Shown: positions 4,024-18,452, numbered from the stretch's first letter. The stretch is 64,000 nucleotides of DNA from Blastocatellia bacterium (GCA_035275345.1 DATEMY010000364.1:642-64641), one strand, 5' to 3'. Numbers and translations are program-made. The notes: a model not told the origin generated them from the sequence alone.

Positions 4024-7000
4024 TTATTTTTCTCTTTTACCATTTAAATTCGCCCACTCGCCTGACTGTATGAAGCTGGCCCAATAGTACGGATGCCGCC
4101 GTTTCACATCCTTGAGCATCTCTATTTGCGCCTGTCGCAGCGCGGCGGCGCGTCCTTGCCCACGTTGCAACCCCCGGTAGTAGGCCACCATCAGTTCTCT
4201 GGTCCATCGGTCCGACACCGGCCAGAGGCTCATCACCTGCGTTTCCGCGCCGGCCAGCGCCAGGGCCCGCCGCAGGCCATGAACTCCATCTCCGTTTCTT
4301 ACTTCACCCACTCCGGTATCGCAGGCCGAGAGGGACACCAATTTCGTCCCCCACAAATTAAGCCCTGTCATCTCCAGCGCCGTCAGGATCCCGTTTTCTC
4401 CTTCCTTCTGTTCGTTGGCGCCGGCCAACGCCAATCCTGCGCGCAGCAGAGGATTCTCGATGCGCGATCCATCCTTCTCGACCTGTTTCAGACGACGGCT
4501 AGGTCCGTGAGGCGATTTTCGCAGGCTTCTTTCTCCCGTCGATATCAATTTCAGGTCTTCCAGGAAGAAACCGTGCGTGGCGATGTGCAATATGGCAGGG
4601 CTGTGAACCTGCTCGAGCGCCGCCTTGTTCGCCCGGCGTTTGGTCAGCAGAGTCGCGTTGGGAAGTAGCGAGCGTATGGCGTTGCCTTCCTCCGCCGTGT
4701 AAGGCAGAGCAGGGAAGTAGAATTTGCTGAATGCGGTCGCGGGCGTCTCGTCCCTGGTCGGCCTCTTAGGCTCCGCTTTCGCCTTCTTAGGTTCCGCTTT
4801 CGACTGTTTCAGCAAACGCCTCGCTTCAACCAGACGCCGGCCTCCGAAGTCCGGATCGGCGATCACCAGGGGCCCGCTCTGACTCTTTCGGGGCGTCTGC
4901 AATCGTAGAAGGTCACGTCCGCTGGACAGATAGCTGATCGAGTAACGCTCGACCATATACCGCCCTCGATCATCGACGAGCGCCGCGTAAGGGATGAGAT
5001 TTAGCTCCCCATCAGGCGAGATGAGCAATCGTGTCAGACCTCCGGCCAGGTGGCGGAGGGGCTGAAATACTTTCTGATCAACTACTCGAGCCAGATACTT
5101 CACGTCCCTTCGCTTTGGGTCGCGCATCGCTTTGCGCAGCCTGGCGACGGCCTCGTCAATGGCCTTCGCATCGCCCAGCTCCTTCCACTGAATCTCTTCC
5201 TGCCGGCGCAGGACGTAGGCCACATATCGAGGCCGGCCATAAGCCTCATCTTCCTTTGCGGCTTTGGGATCGAACGGGCGATAAGAAGCGAGCTCGATCA
5301 GAGCCGCATCGTCGGGAATCGCCGCCCGCACGGCTTCGAGCGTGATGGGCAATGATCGGGCGCGGAATTCATCGCTTCTGCGACTGATCTCGGCCTCGAA
5401 CTTCTCGGCCTGTTCTTCGAGAGTCTTGATCCGTTCGCGATATTGATCGGCGGGCATTCCCTGCGGCCCGTCGAGGACCATCCTGGCGATTTGTGAGCGA
5501 GCGTCGGTCAAACTGTCGAGCAATGCTCGATCTTCCGCGTTGAATCGGCCGCGGAGGGCGTTGAGACTTACAGAAGTGGCGTCTAATGCGCGCCCCTTGC
5601 GCTGCAGGATCAATGTGGCGGCCAGGCTGCGCGCCACTGGATCACGGGGAGCATTGCTGAGATGGAGGGAGATGGTTCGATCGGTTTGCTTTGAGAGGGT
5701 GGCGAGATAAGCGAGTATCTGGCGCTCCGAGCTGGTAGCGAGATTGAGCCTGAGGTTGCGTTCGCTGACCGCGTTGGCGCGTGACTGAAAGGCTATCGCC
5801 TGAGCAATATCATTTTTCGCCAAATTAAGTACGGCGAGGTTATCGAGATAACTCGCGACATCAGGGTGTTCCGGCCCCAGCGTTTTCTCCCCGATGGTCA
5901 GCGCGCGTTGATGGAATTGCTCCGCCTTCGGATAATCGCCCCTGATGCGGAAGAGTTCCCCGAGATTGTCGAGAGACTGGGCGACATCAGGGTGCTCCGG
6001 TTCCAGTTCTTTCTCTCGGATGGCCAGCGCGCGTTGATGGAACTGCTCCGCCTTCGAATACTCGCCCCTTGAATAGTAGAGGTTGGCGAGATTGTTGAGA
6101 GAAGTGGCAAAAAAGGGGTGTTCCGGTCCGAGCGCCTTCTCTCTTATTGACAGCGCGCGTTGGTAGAACGGCTCCGCCTTCGAATACTCCCCTCTGTCGC
6201 AATAGAGGAGCGCCAGGTTATTGAGATAAAGGGCGATATTGGGGTGTTCCGGCTCCAGCCGTTTCTCATTTATGGCCAGCGCGCGTTGATAGAGTGGCTC
6301 CGCCTTCTCATAGTCGCCTCTGTAGTGGTAGAGGAGCGCAAGATTGTTGAGAGAACCAGCGACATCGAGGTTATCCGGCCCCAGCGTTTTCTCCCTTATA
6401 GCCAACGCCCGTTGATAGAGCGGCTCCGCCTTTGCGTAATCGCCTCTGGAATAGTAAAGGAGCGCGAGGCTGTTGAGAGACTCGGCGACTTTGAGATTAT
6501 CCGGCCCCAGCGTTTTCTCCCTTATAGTCAGCGCCCGTTGAGAGAACGGCTCCGCCTTCGAATACTCGCCCTTGTAATAGTAGAGGAGCGCAAGATTATT
6601 GAGGTAAGAGGTGATATTGGGATCTTCCGGTTCCAGCGACTTCTCCATTATGGCGAGCGCGCGTTGATAGAGCGGCTCCGCCTTCTCATAGTCGCCTTTG
6701 CTGCGGTAGATGATCGCAAGATTGTTGAGCGAACTGGCGAATTCGGGGTGTTCCAGTCCAAACGCCCGCTCCTTAACCACCAGCGCGCGTTCAAAGAGCT
6801 GTTCCGCCTTCTCATAGTCGCCTTTGCTGCGATGGAGGAGCGCCAGATTGTTGAGGGAAGCGGCGACATCAGGGTGATCCACTCCCAACGTTTTCTCCCG
6901 AATGTCGAGCGCTTGTTGATAGAGCGGCTCCGCCTTCGAATACTCGCCTTTGGAGGAGTAACATATAGCCTGGCCGACGATTGCGGCGACGACATCGGGG

Positions 7001-7839: not shown

Positions 7840-9741
7840 TCAATGATGCTCAAGCTTCATCATCCATACCAGCGTTTCGCCTTTAACTTTGAGCCTGGTC
7901 TGTTTGTTTACCTCATCCCTTTCGACTTCAGGCTTGATGGCCGAAAACGACGCCAGATAATGCAATACTGACGCTCTCTGGGTTAGATCACGGATGGCGC
8001 CGTGGTCCTTGGGATTCGCCCAGCCTTTGACGGCCTCCAACTCAGGAACGGCGCGCTCGGACCAGATGAGCCAGATATTCTCGGCGCCTTCTTCATGGTC
8101 GAGGACGAACCAATTCTCCCGCTGGTTCGGGCCGGGCAGCGGGATTCGCGCTACCTGGCCAGCGCGGATTTCCGGCGAACCGCCGCGGATATCCGCGTCG
8201 GGAAAGAGGAAGTTGAAATTGGGTAAACCATCATTCTGCCTCGGCCCTTCGTTTATGACATATAAAGAGCCGGATTGCGGACTGCTGATGTGGAAGCGTA
8301 TCTCGTCGCTTGCTCCCAGGATGAGATTGTCGAAGGTGGGGAATGGCTTGGCGCGAGGGGTACGTCTGGGGTCTCGTCGCGCCTCCATGATGTAATTGAG
8401 ACGCCGGTCCGAAGCCACGACGGGAGTCGTTCGGGCCTCCTCAGGTTGAGCCTTGTTCCCTATGCTGAAGCGCGGCAAGTCGAGAATGCCGATGACGGCC
8501 AAAAGGGTCAAGGCGAGTGGCGCCAACCATCGCCGCAGGCCGGCAATCGCGTAGGACGCCGTCGCCAATGGACTCCCTTCTCCTCCCAGGCTGTCTGCGA
8601 ACGCGTCAGTAAAATCTTTCGCGTTAGTGAACCGGTCCTCCGGGACGAACGAGAGCGCTTTTAAAATCATGTCTTGTGAGGCTTCAGGCAAATCGGCGCG
8701 CAGTTCGCGCGGTTTGACTTTGACCCCGGCGCGCTGCGATTCATAGAGTTGAAAAATTGACTCGTCGTTGAAAGGCCGCCGCCCGGTTACCAATTCGTAA
8801 GCGATTACTCCCAGGGCATAGATGTCACTGGCCGCGACCGGTTTTCCGCGTAACTGTTCAGGCGCCACGTAACTGCGCGTCCCAACGACTTCGGTAGTCT
8901 GGCAATCGGCTCCCTCCGGCAGCTCATGTATTGTCGCAATTCCGAAATCAATCAGCTTCACATACTCTTCATCATTCAAAATCTGAAGCATGATATTTTC
9001 AGGCTTGAGGTCACGATGAATGACGCCTTGTCGGTGAGCGGCTGCGAGAGCCTGTCCCATCTGGCGGATTATCTTTGCGATGCGCTCAAACTCCATTCCA
9101 CCCCGAGTCATTGCGGAGCGCAGGCTCTCGCCGGAGACATATTGCATAACGAGATATGACCGTCCGTCGGGTAATGCGCCGACGTCGAGCGCGCGCACCA
9201 CGCCCGGATGGTCGATCCGCGACAAGGCTGCGATCTCAATCCTGAATTTCTTTTCCAACCACGTCCTGCGCATGGTTTGTCGCCATACGTTCAGCAAGAC
9301 TTTGATCACCACCGGCGCGTCATGCAACTTCCGGTCGCGGGCGAAGAAAACCGCGCAGGTCCCGCCCTGACCCAATTCTCTTTCGATCACATAACGCCCG
9401 CCGAGCATGGCGCCTGGCGCGAAGTATCCGGCTAATCCTTCGGACGGAGATGCCGTGACGTTATTCGGCGGATGGTCACAACCCGGGAGAGCTGCGCCTT
9501 TCGCGTCCAGGTCGTCTTCATCATGATTCGCGGCGTCCGTCAGCGGGGGCATTGAGAGCAGCGCGGGCGTGGCAAGGAAACTCTCCGCCCGCCCTTCATG
9601 AGTTAACATCGCTTCGACCTCCGAGCGCAAGAACGCATCGCCAGCGCAAGCCCTGGCAAGGAAACCGGAGCGCTGTCCCGCTTCAAGCTGCAAGGCGCTG
9701 TAGCAGATCCGGCAAACCCGTTCGTATAATTCCGGCGTCAC
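7840..9741 (-). CDS. Membrane Ser/Thr protein kinase with C-terminal DUF4384-like ectodomain
   Basis: GTG start at 9741. An AGGAG overlaps the sigma gene stop. Motifs HRDLKPENIML, DFGIA, YVAPEQ. TM segment LAPLALTLLAVIGIL. C-terminal IRFHISSPQSGSLYVINEGP...FNFLFPD. Confidence 0.9.
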   Translation of the reverse strand: MTPELYERVCRICYSALQLEAGQRSGFLARACAGDAFLRSEVEAMLTHEGRAESFLATPALLSMPPLTDAANHDEDDLDAKGAALPGCDHPPNNVTASPSEGLAGYFAPGAMLGGRYVIERELGQGGTCAVFFARDRKLHDAPVVIKVLLNVWRQTMRRTWLEKKFRIEIAALSRIDHPGVVRALDVGALPDGRSYLVMQYVSGESLRSAMTRGGMEFERIAKIIRQMGQALAAAHRQGVIHRDLKPENIMLQILNDEEYVKLIDFGIATIHELPEGADCQTTEVVGTRSYVAPEQLRGKPVAASDIYALGVIAYELVTGRRPFNDESIFQLYESQRAGVKVKPRELRADLPEASQDMILKALSFVPEDRFTNAKDFTDAFADSLGGEGSPLATASYAIAGLRRWLAPLALTLLAVIGILDLPRFSIGNKAQPEEARTTPVVASDRRLNYIMEARRDPRRTPRAKPFPTFDNLILGASDEIRFHISSPQSGSLYVINEGPRQNDGLPNFNFLFPDADIRGGSPEIRAGQVARIPLPGPNQRENWFVLDHEEGAENIWLIWSERAVPELEAVKGWANPKDHGAIRDLTQRASVLHYLASFSAIKPEVERDEVNKQTRLKVKGETLVWMMKLEHH

Positions 9742-9751
9742 TGTTTAGCTC

Positions 9752-10309
9752 CTATCCTAGCTCGCGAAGAAGCCAGAGTTTGGCCAGGGTCAAGTCTCGC
9801 TTGACGGTCCCAAGCGAAACGCTGAGGACTTCGGCTATCTCTTTCAAAGCCAGGCCGCCGAAGAAGTGCAATTCCACCACTCGGCTTTGTCTGGAATGCA
9901 GCGCGGACAGCTTATCCAATGCTATATCAAGATCGACGAGATCCGGGTTGCGTTCGGAAAATACCTCGGCCGCTTCTTCCAACGTGACATGCTTCGCTCC
10001 GGCGCCGCGCTTTAAGGCTTTTTGCTCGAGGGCGTAATCAACCAGAATGCGCCGCATCATCTGGGCCGCCACCCCGAAGAAATGAGCGCGGTTCTGCCAC
10101 TGCACGTTTTGCCAGTCGATCAATCGTAGGTAGGCTTCTTGCAGGAGAGCGGTAGTTTGCAGAATATGGTTGGGGCGTTCCTTCGCCAGGTAACTCTTGG
10201 CCAGGCGGCGCAACTCAGCATGCACCATCGGGGCGAGTTTTTCGAGCGCCTCTCGATCTCCATCGCTCCACGCTACCAGTAGCTTGGTGATCTCGTGTGT
10301 CGTCGACAT
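9752..10309 (-). CDS. ECF-type RNA polymerase sigma factor (Sigma70_ECF / TIGR02999-like, kinase-associated type)
   Basis: ORF 9752..10330 opens with TTG. I prefer the ATG at 10309 (MSTTHEITKLL). Has TTALLQEAYLRLIDW and the C-terminal HTH LSVSLGTVKRDLTLAKLWL. No anti-sigma gene is adjacent. Confidence 0.85.
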   Translation of the reverse strand: MSTTHEITKLLVAWSDGDREALEKLAPMVHAELRRLAKSYLAKERPNHILQTTALLQEAYLRLIDWQNVQWQNRAHFFGVAAQMMRRILVDYALEQKALKRGAGAKHVTLEEAAEVFSERNPDLVDLDIALDKLSALHSRQSRVVELHFFGGLALKEIAEVLSVSLGTVKRDLTLAKLWLLRELG

Positions 10310-10383
10310 TACTAACCATCTCTTAGCCAATTGGCGACCACGGGGACGGCGTTATTTTATCACAGTCGCAGATAGGCGCGTCG

Positions 10384-11564: not shown

Positions 11565-13235
11565 ATGCAGAAGATGTGGAAAATTTCGATCATTGCTTTG
11601 GCCTTCATCCTGGCCATTGGTCCCATGTTCAGTTCAGCGCCAGTGGGCGCGCAGGTCGGCTCCAATCAGGCGATCCAGCCTCAAAAGCAGTTGAGCCCGC
11701 AACAACAACAGGCGCTCCGGGCTTTGGGAAGGCGTTTGCAGGAGGTCGAGTTCGACGACCGCGCAGTCCCTTCCTGGCTGAGGGGCGATTTGGGGACGGT
11801 CAATGGGAGTCCTCGTGACGCGGCCGTCGAAGCGATGCGCGCGCTCGGTCCCCTCTTCCGCCGCGGGGCGGACGACGAGTTCGAGATGAGTAAGGAGCCT
11901 GTCCAGGACGAGCTGGGCCAGACGCACGTTCGGTTGCAGCAACGTTACCGCGGACTGCGTGTGGTGAGCGCCAAAATGATCGTGCACCTTCAGGGCGATC
12001 GTGTCATAGGCGTCAACGGCGATTTTATTCCCGAGATTGATCTGGACCCGAGGCCGGGCTTGATCGCCGAGGTCGCGTTTGGCATCGCGCGAAGGAGAAT
12101 GCCGGCGGCGGAGATGGTTGAAATCACCAGGCCCGAGCTGGTGGTTTTTGTCACGGAGGATAAGACGCCTCGCCTGGCCTGGAGCCAGCAAGTGGCCTAT
12201 GAAAGCGCTGACGGCCAGCCGAACAAAGACCTGATCTTCGCCGACGCCGCCACAGGCGACCTGCTGGGGCAGCGCGCGCTCATCTGGACGGCCAAGAACC
12301 GCAAGGTTTATAGCGCCAATCACGGAACCAGTCTGCCGGGTAATCCGCTCTGGCAAGAGGGAGACATTCTCTTTTCGTTCTATAGCGATGCGCTGAAAGG
12401 CGCCGTCAACGGAACGGGAAAGACCTACGATTTTTACAAGAACGTTTTTAACCGGGACTCTTACAACAATGCGGGGGCGGCGCTGATCTCCACCATCCAT
12501 TACGGGAACGACTACAACAACGCGTACTGGGATTCGAGCTTGAAGCAGATGGTCTATGGCGACGGCGACGGAGTGACGTTCAAGCCACTGTCCATCGGGG
12601 TGGATGTCACGGCGCATGAGTTGACCCACGGTGTGACCGACGCGACAGCAGACCTGATCTACGCGAAGGAGTCCGGGGCGCTCAACGAGGCCATCTCCGA
12701 TATCCTCGCCATCGCCACGGAGAATTATTACCCATCTTCCATACAGCCTTTATTCTTCGATTGGCAGATCGGTGAGGACGTCTATACGCCAAACGTGGCG
12801 GGCGATGCGCTCCGCTATATGAACAATCCGACTCTGGACGGATATTCCGCCGACTACTACCCGGACCGCCTTTATCCCGGAACCTGTACGCCCTCGTGGG
12901 GTAACGATTACTGCGGCGTACATGGCAATAGTGGCATCGCCAACCTCGCCTTCTACCTGATGGTCGTCGGCGGACAGCACCCGCAGGGGAAGACCACGAA
13001 TGTGGCGCCCGCCATCGGCATGTCGAAGGCAAGAAAGATCTGGTACCGCGCGCTGACGGTCTATATGGATGAAGATGACAACTTCCAGCAGGCCCGCTCC
13101 AAGACAGTTCAGGCCGCCGCCGACCTGTACGGCGGGAACTGTGGGGACGCAGCCAAGGCGGTTAGGAGCGCGTGGAACGCGGTGGGCGTCACACCTACCA
13201 GTCTCATACTACCCTGCTTAGTCCTTCCTATCTAA
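11565..13235 (+). CDS. Exported M4 (thermolysin-family) metallopeptidase with propeptide
   Basis: AGAGGAGA upstream of the ATG. Signal-like MQKMWKISIIALAFILAIGPMFSSAPVGA. Motifs VTAHELTHGVTD (HExxH) and GALNEAISD. Confidence 0.9.
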   Translation: MQKMWKISIIALAFILAIGPMFSSAPVGAQVGSNQAIQPQKQLSPQQQQALRALGRRLQEVEFDDRAVPSWLRGDLGTVNGSPRDAAVEAMRALGPLFRRGADDEFEMSKEPVQDELGQTHVRLQQRYRGLRVVSAKMIVHLQGDRVIGVNGDFIPEIDLDPRPGLIAEVAFGIARRRMPAAEMVEITRPELVVFVTEDKTPRLAWSQQVAYESADGQPNKDLIFADAATGDLLGQRALIWTAKNRKVYSANHGTSLPGNPLWQEGDILFSFYSDALKGAVNGTGKTYDFYKNVFNRDSYNNAGAALISTIHYGNDYNNAYWDSSLKQMVYGDGDGVTFKPLSIGVDVTAHELTHGVTDATADLIYAKESGALNEAISDILAIATENYYPSSIQPLFFDWQIGEDVYTPNVAGDALRYMNNPTLDGYSADYYPDRLYPGTCTPSWGNDYCGVHGNSGIANLAFYLMVVGGQHPQGKTTNVAPAIGMSKARKIWYRALTVYMDEDDNFQQARSKTVQAAADLYGGNCGDAAKAVRSAWNAVGVTPTSLILPCLVLPI

Positions 13236-13259
13236 ATTTGAAAGACGATTGAGATAGTT

Positions 13260-13299
13260 TCGCCCCTTGCCACAGCTTACCGGCGAGGGGCGAGTTTTT
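13260..13299 (+). terminator. Rho-independent terminator after the M4 peptidase gene
   Basis: TCGCCCCT (13260-13267) pairs with AGGGGCGA (13286-13293), followed by GTTTTT. Confidence 0.6.
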
Positions 13300-13473
13300 C
13301 TCCAGCCGTGATCGGCGACCGATGCCGCTCCCCACCATACAATTTTTATTGAAATACTTGATCTAGATCAATGACGGTCCAATATGATTCAGCTATTAAA
13401 GAAGGCGTTGGTTCTCAATTGTTCTTTCACTACACAAATATTCCCAAACTTACAACAAAAAAAGGAGGTTTCT

Positions 13474-13725
13474 ATGAAGAAAGATACAGCTCTTTCTGTG
13501 GCGATGCCCACAATTAAGATAATTACCCTGGGGATGCTTATGTGGGGCGCTAACGTTTTGTCTACCGAAGCAACTGCTGGATCCGCATGTTATACCTGCA
13601 GTACGGTTGGAGGGGCATACAACTGTGTGGAGCCAAACCCCGGTGGGTCTGGGTATTCCGCATGCGCTGAATGGCATGAGTCAGGTAGTTGTATTCTTAG
13701 CGGAACGAGTTGCACGGCGAGCTGA
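13474..13725 (+). CDS. Small exported cysteine-rich peptide (83-aa precursor, predicted 48-aa mature part with 6 Cys)
   Basis: AAGGAGG at 13462-13468, ATG at 13474. Sec-type leader MKKDTALSVAMPTIKIITLGMLMWGANVLSTEATA. Remainder GSACYTCSTVGGAYNCVEPNPGGSGYSACAEWHESGSCILSGTSCTAS. Lies in the low-GC island. Confidence 0.65.
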   Translation: MKKDTALSVAMPTIKIITLGMLMWGANVLSTEATAGSACYTCSTVGGAYNCVEPNPGGSGYSACAEWHESGSCILSGTSCTAS

Positions 13726-13901
13726 GCTAAAGTAGCTGCCCGCTCAAAAGGCGTTCTTGGGTAAGTTACATTTATGGCTCAAGAGGCGATTAAGCGTTTC
13801 GCTTCTCTACAGTACAAAAAATGATGTTGGACTGTGGTCATAGCTAATCAGGTCATCGTGCGATTTGACTTTCTGTCGCCAAACTGAAAGGAGATCACAC
13901 G

Positions 13902-14540
13902 ATGACCGGCGTTCGCTTGCTTGAGCGAACGATTATACTGTCACATTTCGCTGCTGCGGTAGAACCGGCATTTACACATGATGGCTCATCATCGAAAGGA
14001 TATTGTATGCATGATATTGCTAAGAAGCTTAATGCACTCGCAAACATTACAATTATTATAGTTGGGGTGATAATAGTCGCCCTTTTAGTTAAACGGCAGT
14101 TCTTCAGTGAGCCACTATTCTCAACTAATAATTTCCAGATTGGAAAAAGAGTTCCGCTGGAGGAAATAACGTGGGATCAAAATGACCAAACACTATTTCT
14201 CGTAATCACGGAAAAATGTCATTTTTGTACAAGCGGTATGCCCTTTTATCGTCAATTGGCAGAGATGCGAAACGGCCAAAATAAGTTTAAACTAGTTGTA
14301 ATTACAACGGGCAGGGGTGATGAAGGAAAGAGATATGTTAATAGTTTAGGCATAACGATTGATGAGATAAAACAAGTGACGGATAAAACAATTGGGATTG
14401 TACGAGTGCCATCTATAATACTTGCCAACAGCAGTGGTATCGTAACAGATATCTGGACCGGGAAGTTGACTTCTGTTCAGGAGACGGAAGTATTGGATAG
14501 ATTGAAAGGCGTTGGCCATTTGGTCACACAACACCCGTAA
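13902..14540 (+). CDS. Membrane-anchored thioredoxin-fold thiol:disulfide oxidoreductase (TlpA/ResA-like, CHFC active site)
   Basis: GAAAGGAG 7 nt before the ATG at 13902 (alternative ATG at 14007 gives MHDIAKK...). TM anchor ITIIIVGVIIVALLV. CxxC context FLVITEKCHFCTSGMPFY. Confidence 0.7.
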   Translation: MTGVRLLERTIILSHFAAAVEPAFTHDGSSSKGYCMHDIAKKLNALANITIIIVGVIIVALLVKRQFFSEPLFSTNNFQIGKRVPLEEITWDQNDQTLFLVITEKCHFCTSGMPFYRQLAEMRNGQNKFKLVVITTGRGDEGKRYVNSLGITIDEIKQVTDKTIGIVRVPSIILANSSGIVTDIWTGKLTSVQETEVLDRLKGVGHLVTQHP

Positions 14541-14564
14541 ATGGTACAATTGTAGACCGCAATA

Positions 14565-16505
14565 ATGAATGGAGACCTAAACATGGAAAAGTTAGCGGCA
14601 GTTTTATTTCTACCTTCCACATCCGACTCAATACACTATAGACCGTATTTAGATTTTGTGGGACCCACAAATTTACTTGAGTGGTTTATTGATAGATTCA
14701 TTTCTGCGAACCCAACCGTTAGTTTGTATGTCCTGGCTCAGGGAGGCGCTGACTTACAGCTCGTGAGCGATAAGGCGCATTATATCAAGACTGATCACAA
14801 AACAAAGCTATTGGCATTTGCGCAGGCAGCTCGTGATATACCTAAACCTTATATAGCATTCCTGACCTTAGGTTTTGGATTCGCCCCAAGAAGCTTATTG
14901 GAATACGCCTATTCACACCACGTATCTTCCGGCAACAACTTTACGCCCATTATAGGGCTACCAAACGGCGTTATCCCCGAGATATACAACTCTGATCTAT
15001 TATTGTCACTCCTAGATCTCAAATTCCCGTTTTTACCACCCGATCCAGTCGTAATTATTGATCGCCTCTCGCAGATTGCCAGCTCTACGGGCGAGACGCC
15101 TATACCTATAAGAGATCAGGTTCTTGATGCGGCGGCTTTGTACAATGTTGATCCGGTTGAACTACCAGAATATGTCCAGCTGGAGTACTCCAGAGATATT
15201 GACGTCGCAAGAAGCGCGATCACTGACTTATCAGCGTTGAATGATGAAGGTGGCATAGATGGTCTTCGTTGCTGGAAACAAGCTGCGTTAGAGGAACGTC
15301 TAAATTTCCGCGGCGGGCTGGCGCGAGGAATTAATATAGAAAACGATTTTAAGAAGAAAACTACGCGACGGCGTGTTCTTTACGTTTCTAATCCTTCGGC
15401 ATTTTCTGGCGCAGAGGGAAGCTTATGTCAGCTAACCTCACGCTTGGATACAGATCGCTACCAACCATTTGCATTAATAGGCCTGAGAGGAGTTTTTTCG
15501 GAGCGCCTAAAATCATTAGGAGTTAGTGTGATATGCCCGGATTGGGATTTTGGGAGTAATACCTTAGATGTTTTTCTGTATCTCATGAATACCGTTCGCA
15601 GGATTCAGCCTGATATTATACACCTTAATGGTATTACAGGAATTCCAATAATGTTTGTGGCAGCCTCATTAGGTATACCCACCATCTTGCATTTACGATT
15701 TACGTCTAAACCAGGGTCAGCAGAACAATTACGGTGCGCTGATAGTTTTATCGCAGTTTCAGAATTCGTCAAGCGAGAAACCGCTAAACTCAATATAGTA
15801 AAAGACTCGATATACGTCGTCAAAAATGGGATAGATACCTGTTATTTTCGCAAGGACATATACAACAAGCTTGAAATGAGACAGGAATTCGGACTCCCGC
15901 TCGACTCAAAGATTGTATTAATGGTAGCTCGCTTTGCGCCATACAAACGACATGACTTAATGTTGAAGGCTGCTGACATTATAAGAAAATTCGTTCCATC
16001 ATTTCATTTAATCATCGTTGGCGAAGCTTTGGGATATCATGAATATTATGAGTCAATTCAACAGGCCAGAGATGATTTAAACTTAAATGACTGCGTAACC
16101 TTCATTGGTTTTCAAGCGGATATAAGAAAGTTAGAGGCTGCGGCTGATGTGTTAGTATCGTGTTCCGATGGCGAGCCGCTTTCACGGTGTATTATCGAAG
16201 CAATGGCCATGGAATTACCGGTAGTCGCCGTGAATTCCGGCGGTACTCCCGAAATCATCGAGGATAAAAAGACTGGTTTTATTGTAGAGAATGGCGCCCA
16301 TGCGAAGTTGGCGGAGCGTTTAATCGAAGTTCTTACTGTGGATGGGCTTTGCGTACAAATGGCGCAGGAGGCTAGAAAATTCGCGGAACGTGAGTTAGAC
16401 GCTAGCATATGCGCTAACCGAACCATGGAGATATATGATTTGACATTGTCGAAGCGGCAAAATCGGCAACAAATAAACGCTCGACCCACTCAGTCGGGAT
16501 GTTGA
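14565..16505 (+). CDS. Two-domain glycosyltransferase: ~270-aa uncharacterised N-terminal domain fused to a GT4 (GT-B) domain
   Basis: C-terminal EPLSRCIIEAMAMELPVVAVNSGGTPEIIEDKKTGFIV (E-x7-E region) and RRVLYVSNPSAFSGAEGS are typical of GT4. The alternative ATG at 14583 has a better GGAGA spacer. Confidence 0.8.
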   Translation: MNGDLNMEKLAAVLFLPSTSDSIHYRPYLDFVGPTNLLEWFIDRFISANPTVSLYVLAQGGADLQLVSDKAHYIKTDHKTKLLAFAQAARDIPKPYIAFLTLGFGFAPRSLLEYAYSHHVSSGNNFTPIIGLPNGVIPEIYNSDLLLSLLDLKFPFLPPDPVVIIDRLSQIASSTGETPIPIRDQVLDAAALYNVDPVELPEYVQLEYSRDIDVARSAITDLSALNDEGGIDGLRCWKQAALEERLNFRGGLARGINIENDFKKKTTRRRVLYVSNPSAFSGAEGSLCQLTSRLDTDRYQPFALIGLRGVFSERLKSLGVSVICPDWDFGSNTLDVFLYLMNTVRRIQPDIIHLNGITGIPIMFVAASLGIPTILHLRFTSKPGSAEQLRCADSFIAVSEFVKRETAKLNIVKDSIYVVKNGIDTCYFRKDIYNKLEMRQEFGLPLDSKIVLMVARFAPYKRHDLMLKAADIIRKFVPSFHLIIVGEALGYHEYYESIQQARDDLNLNDCVTFIGFQADIRKLEAAADVLVSCSDGEPLSRCIIEAMAMELPVVAVNSGGTPEIIEDKKTGFIVENGAHAKLAERLIEVLTVDGLCVQMAQEARKFAERELDASICANRTMEIYDLTLSKRQNRQQINARPTQSGC

Positions 16506-16847
16506 CTCTCAAAGTATCCGGCTTGCAGAAGCCTCACTACCTTTTGGAATGATTCGATCGTCGCGCCCTGTCATTCTGACCATGCCAGGCTCGGCATAGA
16601 GCGCATGCGCATGCGCAGAAGAAAATCTCTCAGCGCCGCCAGCCTCAACCCCGTCAACCGTTTCCGCCACATCACACAATCTCCAGCCGCAGCGATTGCG
16701 CGGCGGCACGTCGATTTCAATACCTAGGGTCGGGCAGGTAAGAAGCCGTCAGTGGCGATTCCGATTCCAGAGCGGCATGCGCCTGCGGCCGGTTGGCTTC
16801 AGACCTGGCCCAAATTTTCAGAACCTTAAGAAAAAGGAGTTAAGACA

Positions 16848-18452
16848 ATGATGAAACCCTTCTCTATATTTCGGCGGTCACGTTGGCAAACGACATCTCT
16901 CGGTTTGCCCCTCGCAATGGCTCTGATCGGCGCGATGGCTCTCGGCCAGGAGGCTGAGCGCCCAAGTCCGAAACAGCGGGCGCAAATGGTTGAGAGAGTT
17001 GATCGCTCGGAGCCGCATCCCATTCAAACCGCGTTTGCTTACCAGGGACAGTTGAAAGAGAGCGGAACGCTGGCGAATGGCGCTTACGACGTTCAGTTTG
17101 CCCTCTACACGGCTCAGGTGGGCGGGAGCGAATTGAAATCCGTCGTCCTTGAAGACGTCACCGTCGTCAACGGACTGTTCACTGTAAAGTTGGATTTCGG
17201 CCGGGCGGCCTTCGACAGCAAAGAGAGCTGGTTGGATGTGTCGGTGCGCGCCGGTCATAGCGTGGACGCGTTCGAGTCGCTGTCGCCCCGCCAGCGGCTG
17301 ATGCCTACGCCCTATGCGATCTTTGCGCAACATGAGCAGTGGAGCTTGATTGGCGTGCTCATCGGGTTCGCCGGCGGTGAAGACAATAACGTGGTCGGAG
17401 CCGGCGCCACTCCGTTCGCCGCCGCGACCGCCACGAAGGAGGCCGACGATCGGCGCTCGAAGAGCTCTGACTCGACAAATCTTCAGGCGTCCCTGGCGGC
17501 GAGCGGCACGCCAAATTTCATCGCCAAATTCGACGGTTCGGGCAGCCCCACCGCCGATTCGATTATGTTTGACGATGGCGCTCGTGTCGCGATCGGGACC
17601 ACGACTCCGCTATCTACTCTTCAAGTGCATGGCCCCGGCGGCGTGGAGCAAGGCCCGGGAGGCAGTTTCGCCACAGCGAGCGTCTTTTCCACGAACTTCC
17701 TCCTTCCTCAAGGCTTTGGGCAACTGGGACTTTTCACGACCGATCCACAGGCGCCTGATATCGGCGGTCAGTTGGTCCTCGGCGGGCAGGACGGTGAAAC
17801 CGATAGAAGAACCTTCGCCGCCATTGCCGGGAGAAAAGAGAATAACATCGCGAGAAATCGAGATGGTTATTTGCAGTTCTCAGTCCGTTCCCAAGAGGGG
17901 CCTCCGTTCCGAGATCTCCAGGAACGGATGCGGATCACGAGCGAAGGTAACGTCGGTATCGGGACGACAATCCCGAGCCGGAAACTGGAGGTGTTCGAGA
18001 GCGTTGATAGTTTCACTACCATGGGCATCAGAAACCCCAATCTCGGCAGCAAGGCGACCGCCGCCATAGCCGTGAATTCGGACGGCGCTCAGGGGTCTTT
18101 TATCTCCCACAGCAGTTCCTACATCGCCCCGCACCGCGCCGACCGCGTCTCCCTCGTGGCCGAAAGTAACGCCGCGGGCGTGGATGTGGTGACTACCCAG
18201 GGGAGCGGCGACATCCGGCTGTTTACTGGCGGATATTCGGACTTCAACGAGCGGATGAGGGTAACCAACGGTGGCGCCGTCGGCGTCGGAACGACCTTGC
18301 CCAAAACCAGGCTTCACGTCGAAGGCGGCAAAATCCTCGTGGGGTCCGCGGGGCAGGGAATCATTCTCAAATCGCCGAATGGCGCAGTCTGTCGCGAGCT
18401 GACCATCAACAATTTAGGGGGGATCACGCTGAACGCCATAGCGTGTCCCTAG
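16848..18452 (+). CDS. Exported repeat protein with phage-tail-fibre-like motifs
   Basis: AAGGAG upstream of the start. Signal-like N-terminus. FAYQGQLKESGTLANGAYDVQFALY...VTVVNGLFTVKLDFG. Recurring xxVGIGTTxPxxKLxV motifs. C-terminal GIILKSPNGAVCRELTINNLGGITLNAIACP. Confidence 0.7.
   Translation: MMKPFSIFRRSRWQTTSLGLPLAMALIGAMALGQEAERPSPKQRAQMVERVDRSEPHPIQTAFAYQGQLKESGTLANGAYDVQFALYTAQVGGSELKSVVLEDVTVVNGLFTVKLDFGRAAFDSKESWLDVSVRAGHSVDAFESLSPRQRLMPTPYAIFAQHEQWSLIGVLIGFAGGEDNNVVGAGATPFAAATATKEADDRRSKSSDSTNLQASLAASGTPNFIAKFDGSGSPTADSIMFDDGARVAIGTTTPLSTLQVHGPGGVEQGPGGSFATASVFSTNFLLPQGFGQLGLFTTDPQAPDIGGQLVLGGQDGETDRRTFAAIAGRKENNIARNRDGYLQFSVRSQEGPPFRDLQERMRITSEGNVGIGTTIPSRKLEVFESVDSFTTMGIRNPNLGSKATAAIAVNSDGAQGSFISHSSSYIAPHRADRVSLVAESNAAGVDVVTTQGSGDIRLFTGGYSDFNERMRVTNGGAVGVGTTLPKTRLHVEGGKILVGSAGQGIILKSPNGAVCRELTINNLGGITLNAIACP

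Follow-up and report, generated by a model that had tools for sequence, protein, structure and literature searches.

What brings together a small cysteine-rich peptide, a thiol-disulfide oxidoreductase and a glycosyltransferase (GT), and what could such a combination make? The question is raised by positions 13474-16505 of a 64,000-nucleotide stretch of DNA from a Blastocatellia bacterium, a soil member of the Acidobacteriota (GCA_035275345.1 DATEMY010000364.1:642-64641), which was analyzed as a whole and is referred to here as the window. An earlier note had described three co-directional genes in this region and had cautiously read them as the source of a different kind of secreted and possibly glycosylated disulfide-rich peptide. 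The three open reading frames (ORFs) were present as described when read from the sequence, and the overall interpretation is supported by synteny, by the gene context of the GT and by conservation of the small ORF. The trio is a real and undescribed peptide-maturation cassette, because it recurs in distant relatives. With moderate confidence, we propose that it is a mobile, self-contained cassette for a competition peptide that is exported by Sec, folded by disulfides and probably glycosylated.

Recurrence of the trio and mobility of the island

The order peptide, thioredoxin (Trx)-like protein and GT was found in four close lineages, namely the window and the related loci L001, L003-6 and L036, wherever the contig is long enough. 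The architecture recurs at a much deeper divergence in L027, L017, L008/9 and L041, whose GTs are 27-35% identical to that of the window and whose peptides are unrelated, Sec-type and Cys-rich. In L027, an 8-Cys Sec-like peptide, a Trx-like protein (Pfam AhpC-TSA and Redoxin), the GT and a permease of the ADOP family lie on one strand, and in L017 a 10-Cys peptide precedes a Trx-like gene, in divergent orientation to the GT. Loci L008/9 encode a Trx-like protein and MauE, a 6-Cys peptide and a signal peptidase I that scored above the cut-off of TIGR02227, as well as the GT with an ADOP permease, and in L041 the GT is found with a tandem pair of 6-Cys peptides and a Trx-like protein whose motif is CKYC. 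Additionally, Sec-like Cys-containing peptides are encoded just upstream of the GT in L026 and L025, and Trx-like genes occur near it in L002 and L042. The co-occurrence of the three genes, proposed earlier as a test of their connection, was thus borne out both by conserved order and by recurring architecture.

The association was also apparent in a heuristic scan for ORFs with a ribosome-binding site (RBS), a signal-like N-terminus and at least four Cys in the remainder. Sec-like Cys-rich ORFs at most 3.5 kb from family GTs numbered 8 in 151 kb, seven of them credible, compared with three implausible hits in 183 kb of far flanks and none in 129 kb around generic GT4 loci.

Several of these loci have additional features. 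In L025, two paralogous small secreted proteins with two Cys each are encoded upstream of the GT (L025:2021-2272 and 5256-5570), and in both the predicted cleavage site is immediately followed by an SSSSSGSGG tract, which makes them attractive candidate substrates for O-glycosylation. The L008 system is located between an RHS/YD-repeat toxin gene and a non-ribosomal peptide synthetase gene (L008:1-2558 and 14806-17926), a neighborhood of antagonism and secondary metabolism. In L017 (7716-8750, minus strand) and L026 (8460-9944, plus strand), the Cys-rich peptides occur with another protein family that has no assigned function and no Pfam match (29% identity between the two loci) and is absent from the window.

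The cassette in the window occupies an island of low guanine-cytosine (GC) content at 13352-16476, delimited by composition (43.3% GC compared with 56.9% in the remainder of the window) and by blastn similarity to L001, L003 and L004, which is confined to the same interval and stops at the end of the GT gene. The foreign composition on which the earlier note had relied was therefore confirmed. In those three loci the cassette has 43-45% GC within flanks of 54-59%, and genes for Tn3- and IS3-type transposases lie beside it. It follows from this low GC inside higher-GC flanks and from the transposase neighbors in relatives that the cassette moves horizontally between Acidobacterial hosts. At the island edges in the window, no terminal inverted or direct repeats were found, and neither a transposase nor a tRNA is present.

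The same edges bear on a different explanation, in which the island is the remnant of a larger cluster borne on a transposon and is in decay, having lost its permease and yielding no functional product. Consistent with this, the island ends exactly at the GT stop codon, where relatives run on into the ADOP permease and the Tn3/IS3 transposase genes, and the 64-kb window contains no ADOP gene. However, the three ORFs are intact and have good RBSs, the GT retains a ratio of nonsynonymous to synonymous substitution rates (dN/dS) of 0.28 even against its nearest relative, and L036 shows the same permease-free unit of peptide, Trx-like protein and GT, which is all that its 4.8-kb contig carries. 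Acidobacteria, moreover, have many ADOP paralogues elsewhere in the genome (TIGR03434 description). Decay is accordingly considered improbable. The earlier statement that no transporter or protease is present holds for the island itself and does not extend to the relatives, in which an ADOP/MacB-type permease lies beside the GT and, in one case, a signal peptidase I as well.

The three products and the contexts of the glycosyltransferase family

The peptide precursor gene (13474-13725, plus strand) encodes 83 amino acids (aa) and is preceded, 5 nucleotides before its ATG, by the RBS AAGGAGG (13462-13468, plus strand). The first 35 aa (13474-13578, plus strand; MKKDTALSVAMPTIKIITLGMLMWGANVLSTEATA) form a Sec-type leader, in which the n-region contains KK, the h-region is moderately hydrophobic and A-T-A lies at -3/-1. 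The hydropathy of the leader was 1.8 in an 11-residue window and 1.56 in a 19-residue window, and a signal peptide therefore fits better than a membrane anchor. Among the variants, the n-region has KK or RK, the sites ATA, ARA, ANA, ASG and AKG share one alignment position, and a small-x-small site stands just ahead of the first Cys in every case. With its basic n-region, hydrophobic h-region and small residues at -3/-1, the leader has the predicted properties of a Sec/signal peptidase I substrate, and the dedicated signal peptidase I in L008 counts toward Sec cleavage.

The remaining 48 aa and the stop codon (13579-13725, plus strand) make up the core, which is anionic and Ser/Gly-rich (9 Ser, 8 Gly, 4 Thr, 6 Cys and no Lys or Arg, with a net charge of -3) and has the Cys framework C-x2-C-x8-C-x12-C-x8-C-x6-C. 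The precursor is thus as described previously, with a Sec-type leader ending in ATA and a six-Cys core. All six Cys and Ser43, which directly follows the CxxC, are kept across the peptide variants. Five relatives share the same six-Cys framework, namely those of L001, P0080 (= L003-6), P0081, L036 and the truncated P0094, so that leader and Cys framework are kept in five other variants, which answers the doubt raised earlier about conservation of this small ORF. An exhaustive profile search with the peptide, covering 1.84 billion representatives, returned two real relatives only (P0095 and P0096 were rejected as spurious repeats), and a metagenome scan with the peptide alignment found nothing beyond L003 and L004, which were already known. 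Membership in the bacterial cis-defensins (CS-alpha-beta) was rejected, since their Cys pattern, C-x(2,18)-C-x3-C-x(2,12)-C-x(4,17)-C-x-C (PMC11561630), failed on eight of eight peptides.

Evolutionary rates were compared among the four variants with DNA. The leader has 65-86% aa identity and a dN of 0.08-0.22, and the core has 38-51% identity, a dN of 0.55-0.75 and a dN/dS of ~0.4-1.2. Values for the GT (dN 0.07-0.11, dN/dS 0.15-0.28) indicate purifying selection on both of its domains, and those of the oxidoreductase were a dN of 0.16-0.25 and a dN/dS of 0.29-0.57. The core therefore diverges 5-8 times faster than the GT, with leader and Cys framework kept. Secreted toxins and competition peptides typically combine a conserved signal with a mature part that changes fast around a fixed Cys framework.

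The second gene encodes a membrane-anchored thioredoxin-fold thiol-disulfide oxidoreductase of 177 aa (14007-14540, plus strand). The longest ORF spans 13902-14540, and 14007-14540 is the likely gene because all homologues begin at the position of 14007 (MHDIAKKLN...) and this start has an RBS of its own, AAAGGA. The transmembrane anchor and thioredoxin-fold CHFC motif noted earlier were both recovered: the N-terminal anchor reaches a Kyte-Doolittle value of 2.95 (19-residue window), the CHFC motif lies at 14217-14228, the cis-Pro loop is conserved, and C71, C74 and P135 are invariant in the family. A profile of the family best matched the structures of StoA, ResA and CcmG (E ~1e-7), and NCBIfam returned weak matches to MauD, ResA and TrbB (19-20 bits, compared with cut-offs of 170-189). 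Because these scores are far below the curated cut-offs, the protein is not an equivalog of ResA, MauD, DsbE or StoA; its predicted thioredoxin fold, CxxC, cis-Pro and N-terminal anchor are those of the ResA/TlpA/DsbE/MauD class. StoA, ResA, CcmG, MauD and TrbB act outside the cytoplasm on exported Cys-containing clients, and by analogy with these relatives, which face outside, the oxidoreductase domain is probably extracytoplasmic.

This kinship raises the possibility that the peptide, whether periplasmic or secreted, is a thiol-rich ligand or a redox peptide. It might, for example, bind metal through its CxxC and other Cys, and the oxidoreductase would hold it in the reduced state, much as ResA, CcmG and TlpA maintain their clients. 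The enzyme is indeed most closely related to reductases of the ResA, StoA and CcmG class, and the peptide is anionic, lacks basic residues and starts with CxxC. A core dN/dS of ~0.4-1.2 would be unusual for a housekeeping ligand, however, and the cassette is mobile, rare and transposase-flanked in relatives. In addition, no metal-handling genes lie nearby and the GT would be left without a role. A ligand of this kind is, in our judgment, very improbable.

The third gene (14565-16505, plus strand) encodes a GT of 646 aa with two domains. The Pfam models Glycos_transf_1, Glyco_trans_1_4 and Glyco_transf_4 cover residues ~320-605, and no Pfam or NCBIfam model covers residues 1-270, in agreement with the earlier description of an unrecognized region of ~270 aa fused to a GT4 domain. 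The full-length structural model was confident, with a predicted local distance difference test score (pLDDT) of 89 and a predicted template modeling score (pTM) of 0.87. The C-terminal part (15366-16505, plus strand) was assigned to the GT4 family and GT-B fold by PF00534 (126 bits, compared with a cut-off of 26) and by Foldseek matches to HepE, BshA, PimB', MshA and 7mi0 (target TM 0.8-0.86). The E-x7-E motif at 16173-16199 (E537 and E545), R456 and K461 are invariant in 22 family sequences, and by its fold and catalytic motifs the GT4 domain is intact, so that catalysis is predicted. A weak NCBIfam match to SdgA was also recorded (E 2e-15). As the GT has no signal peptide or transmembrane segment, it is taken to be cytoplasmic.

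The N-terminal domain (residues 1-262; 14565-15350, plus strand) has a cytidylyltransferase-like fold according to AlphaFold2 and Foldseek, an outcome of the structure prediction that the earlier note had recommended for it. Modeled alone, the domain has a pLDDT of 88.6 and matches 6oew (TM 0.64-0.70 at E 1e-7), IspDF (E 3e-8) and also IspD, KdsB and GlmU; a profile search of Protein Data Bank sequences matched 6oew weakly (E 0.009). In the equivalent of the nucleoside triphosphate (NTP)-binding loop, LPxxSxSxx[YWF]xxx, Ser22 alone is invariant and Arg/Lys are not conserved. Opposite the 6oew motif LTGDCPL stands LTLGFGFAP, in which the Asp is absent, and the family conserves no acidic residue at this place. 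With neither the NTP-loop basic residues nor a catalytic Asp present, the domain is regarded as non-catalytic from its sequence, and a role as an active nucleoside diphosphate-sugar synthase was rejected on the same grounds. It is nonetheless constrained as strongly as the GT4 domain (dN/dS 0.18-0.28) and has an invariant patch formed by S22, H119, N124, T127, P133 and Y193.

About 25 full-length relatives of the GT carry both domains. A search with the full-length alignment, using one genome per species, found full-length members only in Acidobacteriota, including Bryobacterales, Acidobacteriaceae, Solibacteraceae and Pyrinomonadaceae, and a member is encoded by the cultured Telmatobacter bradus DSM 23630. 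No match to the N-terminal domain was obtained by tblastn in a plasmid collection. Most family loci are ribosomal-peptide clusters, with Cys-rich Sec peptides, grasp-with-spasm systems or, in one case, LanB/LanC. The grasp-with-spasm loci (L007, L011, L013, L014 and L015) have ATP-grasp (TIGR04192) and SPASM (TIGR04193) maturases above cut-off, precursors of the double-glycine type and a C39-ABC exporter. The class I lanthipeptide cluster (L010:1231-10007) comprises LanB, LanC, a luciferase-like oxidoreductase and a 63-aa precursor ending in ...GGATFSCCIGCNTDGSSWCSCGSGSKSGSK, and adjoins a family GT. A minority of loci have no recognizable peptide and lie beside glycan enzymes (L016 with GT22 and GT2, L018 with GH43 and L021 with GH28). 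Polysaccharide loci, which had been named earlier as the contexts that would speak against a peptide link, are thus not the main ones.

A few further details of these loci were recorded. The grasp-with-spasm loci (e.g., L007:2286-7400 and L015:14347-17499) have one to three tandem precursors sharing the conserved leader ELERINSELFGSFDPEDExWIVGGS and a 71-aa protein, and a sigma-54 activator is often present. L014 and L015 have two GT copies each, and an apparently NusG-like gene (assigned by eye) lies just upstream of the GT in L014, L015 and L022. TrwC/relaxase genes are found near the L010 cluster. In L016:20-4233, the neighbors of the GT are a GT2 gene and a GT22 gene of the Alg9-like kind that is split into two ORFs. 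As this glycan or glycolipid context without a peptide shows, a link to peptides does not extend to all family members.

The most constant neighbor of the family is the duplicated permease ADOP (TIGR03434, 951 bits), found beside or near the GT in L001, L003/4, L007, L008/9, L013, L014, L020, L024, L027 and L042. Because this pairing is the most constant one and the cassette otherwise has no immunity gene, the main rival explanation is that the peptide and oxidoreductase make a secreted disulfide-rich peptide and the GT, with ADOP in relatives, serves self-protection or envelope modification, for example by adding sugar to a lipid-linked precursor or to a surface glycan targeted by the peptide. 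The pairing extends across unrelated peptide chemistries (L003/4, L007, L008, L020, L024, L027 and L042), and permeases of the MacB/BceB type are known resistance devices against peptide antibiotics. Such a role would supply the missing immunity function and would be in keeping with the glycan context of some members (L016, GT22 and GT2) and with the nearest GT4 structures, HepE, BshA, PimB' and PglA, which act on small molecules, lipids and glycans. On the other hand, a GT in a ribosomal-peptide cluster normally tailors the peptide (glycocins, NAI-112 and cacaoidin), and we know of no GT that acts as bacteriocin immunity. All associated cores are Ser/Thr/Gly-rich, up to the SSSSSGSGG tract after the predicted cleavage site in L025, and the cassette in the window keeps its GT without any ADOP. 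On balance, we regard a GT devoted to immunity or the envelope as unlikely, though as the alternative to be taken most seriously.

The intergenic element and the flanking genes

Between the peptide and oxidoreductase genes lies a structured element (13800-13935, plus strand) with a minimum free energy of -53.6 kcal/mol (z = -5.2). A long hairpin at 13851-13907 covers the RBS-like sequence GAAAGGAG and the ATG at 13902, and is followed by a short GC hairpin. A 73% identical copy with one compensatory pair is found at L002:2440-2557, in the opposite orientation relative to the Trx-like gene there. The element has no Rfam match. It may represent a regulatory RNA, a miniature mobile element or a small ORF whose RBS is sequestered; its membership in the cassette is uncertain. 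Rfam likewise gave no match in the whole window at gathering thresholds or in 13200-14100 at E values up to 1, and a scan for promoters and terminators gave counts not above those of shuffled sequence.

The neighbors of the island in the window are ordinary chromosomal genes of host composition, encoding an M4 protease, a methyltransferase, an extracytoplasmic function (ECF) sigma factor with a Ser/Thr kinase, and a sortilin/BNR protein. Directly upstream, a gene of host GC (11565-13235, plus strand) with its own terminator-like hairpin at ~13260-13290 encodes a secreted, thermolysin-like M4 metalloprotease with an FTP propeptide. This protease was considered as the leader protease and ruled out by its host GC and its absence from every other cassette locus; for the same reasons it is probably unrelated to the cassette. 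Directly downstream, a gene also of host GC (16848-18452, plus strand) encodes a 534-aa protein with a signal-like N-terminus and no Pfam, NCBIfam or PADLOC match. The ECF sigma factor and Ser/Thr kinase pair lies ~3 kb upstream of the island (7840-10330, minus strand), and a homologous pair (43% and 31% identity) adjoins the family GT in L023 (4027-7665, minus strand). This shared neighbor may be a coincidence, as such pairs are common in Acidobacteria. A known anti-phage defense system was also considered for the cassette and rejected, since the PADLOC models gave no match to any of its three proteins.

Proposed function and place among known systems

In the pathway that we favor, the 83-aa precursor would be made in the cytoplasm, where the two-domain GT would add a sugar to Ser, Thr or Cys of the unfolded core. 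Ser43, invariant and placed right after the CxxC, is a candidate sugar site. Sec would then export the precursor and signal peptidase I would cut after A-T-A to release the 48-aa anionic peptide, whose three disulfides would be formed or shuffled outside the cytoplasm by the anchored ResA/MauD-like CxxC oxidoreductase. For relatives, a further step is probable in which the ADOP/MacB-type permease next to the GT takes the peptide onward out of the periplasm or shields its producer; this step is not proposed for the window.

The evidence for these steps differs in kind. Sec export, cleavage and extracytoplasmic disulfide formation are suggested by sequence features and by the relatives. Glycosylation of the peptide is likely given that the GT family sits with ribosomal-peptide clusters and that the cores are Ser/Thr/Gly-rich, and cytoplasmic GT-B enzymes such as SdgA/SdgB and GtfA/GtfB are known to glycosylate Ser-rich substrates ahead of Sec export. 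The direction in which the oxidoreductase works and the biological activity of the peptide are presumed. Competition among bacteria is the most likely use of the product, to judge by the stability of leader and Cys framework, the fast-changing core, the mobility of the cassette and the toxin and antibiotic clusters near relatives.

Several observations weigh against this pathway and need to be considered in concert with it. The peptide is known here from genes, and its expression and modification are predicted. An anionic peptide is unlike most membrane-active antimicrobial peptides. Charged residues flank both sides of the anchor in all oxidoreductase homologues, so that topology is not settled by charge, and more distant Trx-like relatives exist without a GT. 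The GT family, for its part, is accompanied most constantly by the ADOP permease and not by a particular kind of peptide, the window has no such permease, and a minority of the family loci have no recognizable peptide. The family also accompanies entirely different leaders (Sec-type, double-glycine type and lanthipeptide), because of which the GT cannot read a common leader and its N-terminal domain probably does not do so either. Finally, a tailoring role for the GT would leave the cassette without an obvious immunity gene.

The closest precedent by parts list is the glycocins (sublancin, glycocin F and the three-disulfide thermoglycocin and orniglycocin; PMC12457901), in which a ribosomal Cys-rich peptide, a dedicated GT and thioredoxin-like enzymes are likewise encoded in a small locus, and whose three-disulfide products are of a size comparable to the cassette peptide. 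Despite this common inventory, it is highly improbable that the island is a classical glycocin locus of the sublancin or glycocin F type. Its GT has matches to Pfam GT4 models only, with GT4 GT-B proteins as best structures, and joins the GT4 domain to a pseudo-cytidylyltransferase domain, whereas glycocins use SunS/GccA-like enzymes. All glycocin leaders known so far are removed by the C39 domain of a peptidase-containing ATP-binding transporter (PCAT) at a double-glycine or Gly-Lys site (PMC12457901), whereas the leader found here is of the Sec-type AxA kind without such a site, and no C39-ABC transporter is encoded in the island or by neighboring genes. The Cys spacings of 2, 8, 12, 8 and 6 include one C-x6-C only and no paired C-x6-C helices, and the hosts are Gram-negative Acidobacteriota in contrast to the Firmicutes that make glycocins. 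Membership in this class was accordingly refuted by GT class, leader type, missing PCAT and Cys pattern. The distinctions from glycocins already drawn in the earlier note, namely the GT-B/GT4 enzyme and the Sec-type leader, hold by Pfam, Foldseek and leader alignment.

Other systems share single steps with the proposed pathway. In the case of methylamine dehydrogenase, MauD and MauE serve the small subunit, which is rich in disulfides, and in this system, as with ResA, StoA and CcmG, a transmembrane-anchored thioredoxin-fold CxxC protein is dedicated to a small exported Cys-rich client. MauE also lies beside the Trx-like homologue in L008, but no methylamine dehydrogenase or cytochrome genes are found with the cassette. 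The STII toxin of E. coli is exported by Sec, oxidized in the periplasm and expelled by MacAB-TolC, and bacteriocins of the enterocin P type are Sec-dependent. The route from Sec signal through periplasmic disulfides to a MacB-family permease (present in cassette relatives, not in the window) is therefore shared, but these peptides, unlike the cassette, have no GT and no dedicated oxidoreductase. SdgA/SdgB and GtfA/GtfB are likewise cytoplasmic GT4/GT-B enzymes whose substrates are later exported by Sec, a similarity generic to GT4; those enzymes lack a pseudo-nucleotidyltransferase domain and their substrates are large adhesins, as opposed to a 48-aa peptide. The cacaoidin cluster of Streptomyces also has a GT4 in a ribosomal-peptide cluster, Cao24, proposed to extend a disaccharide on a lanthidin (PMC8068269), but this enzyme has no N-terminal nucleotidyltransferase-like domain and the peptide class is unrelated.

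Altogether, we rate the cassette as belonging to a known theme, that of a ribosomal peptide accompanied by a GT for tailoring and by a thiol-disulfide enzyme, in which this GT family and this combination are undescribed; no description of either was found in the open-access literature. More tentatively, Acidobacteriota may own a portable peptide GT, a pseudo-cytidylyltransferase fused to GT4, that decorates at least three unrelated kinds of peptide (Sec Cys-rich peptides, grasp-with-spasm products and class I lanthipeptides). On this view, the cassette in the window would represent, in its minimal form, a new class of Sec-dependent, glycosylated three-disulfide peptides, with a dedicated ResA/MauD-like oxidoreductase and without the leader-recognizing machinery of ribosomally synthesized peptides that are modified after translation, or a PCAT.

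To our knowledge, very few kinds of glycosylated ribosomal peptides have been recognized in bacteria, namely glycocins, NAI-112 and cacaoidin. With three genes in 3.1 kb, the cassette is a simple test system that can be synthesized directly. If the GT is an immunity element instead, it would represent an unusual mode of self-protection. If it does modify the peptide, it would constitute a new enzyme family, a GT-B with an accessory domain, for peptide glyco-engineering, and the cassette would provide a first view of the secreted peptides of the Acidobacteriota, which are abundant in soil and hard to culture.

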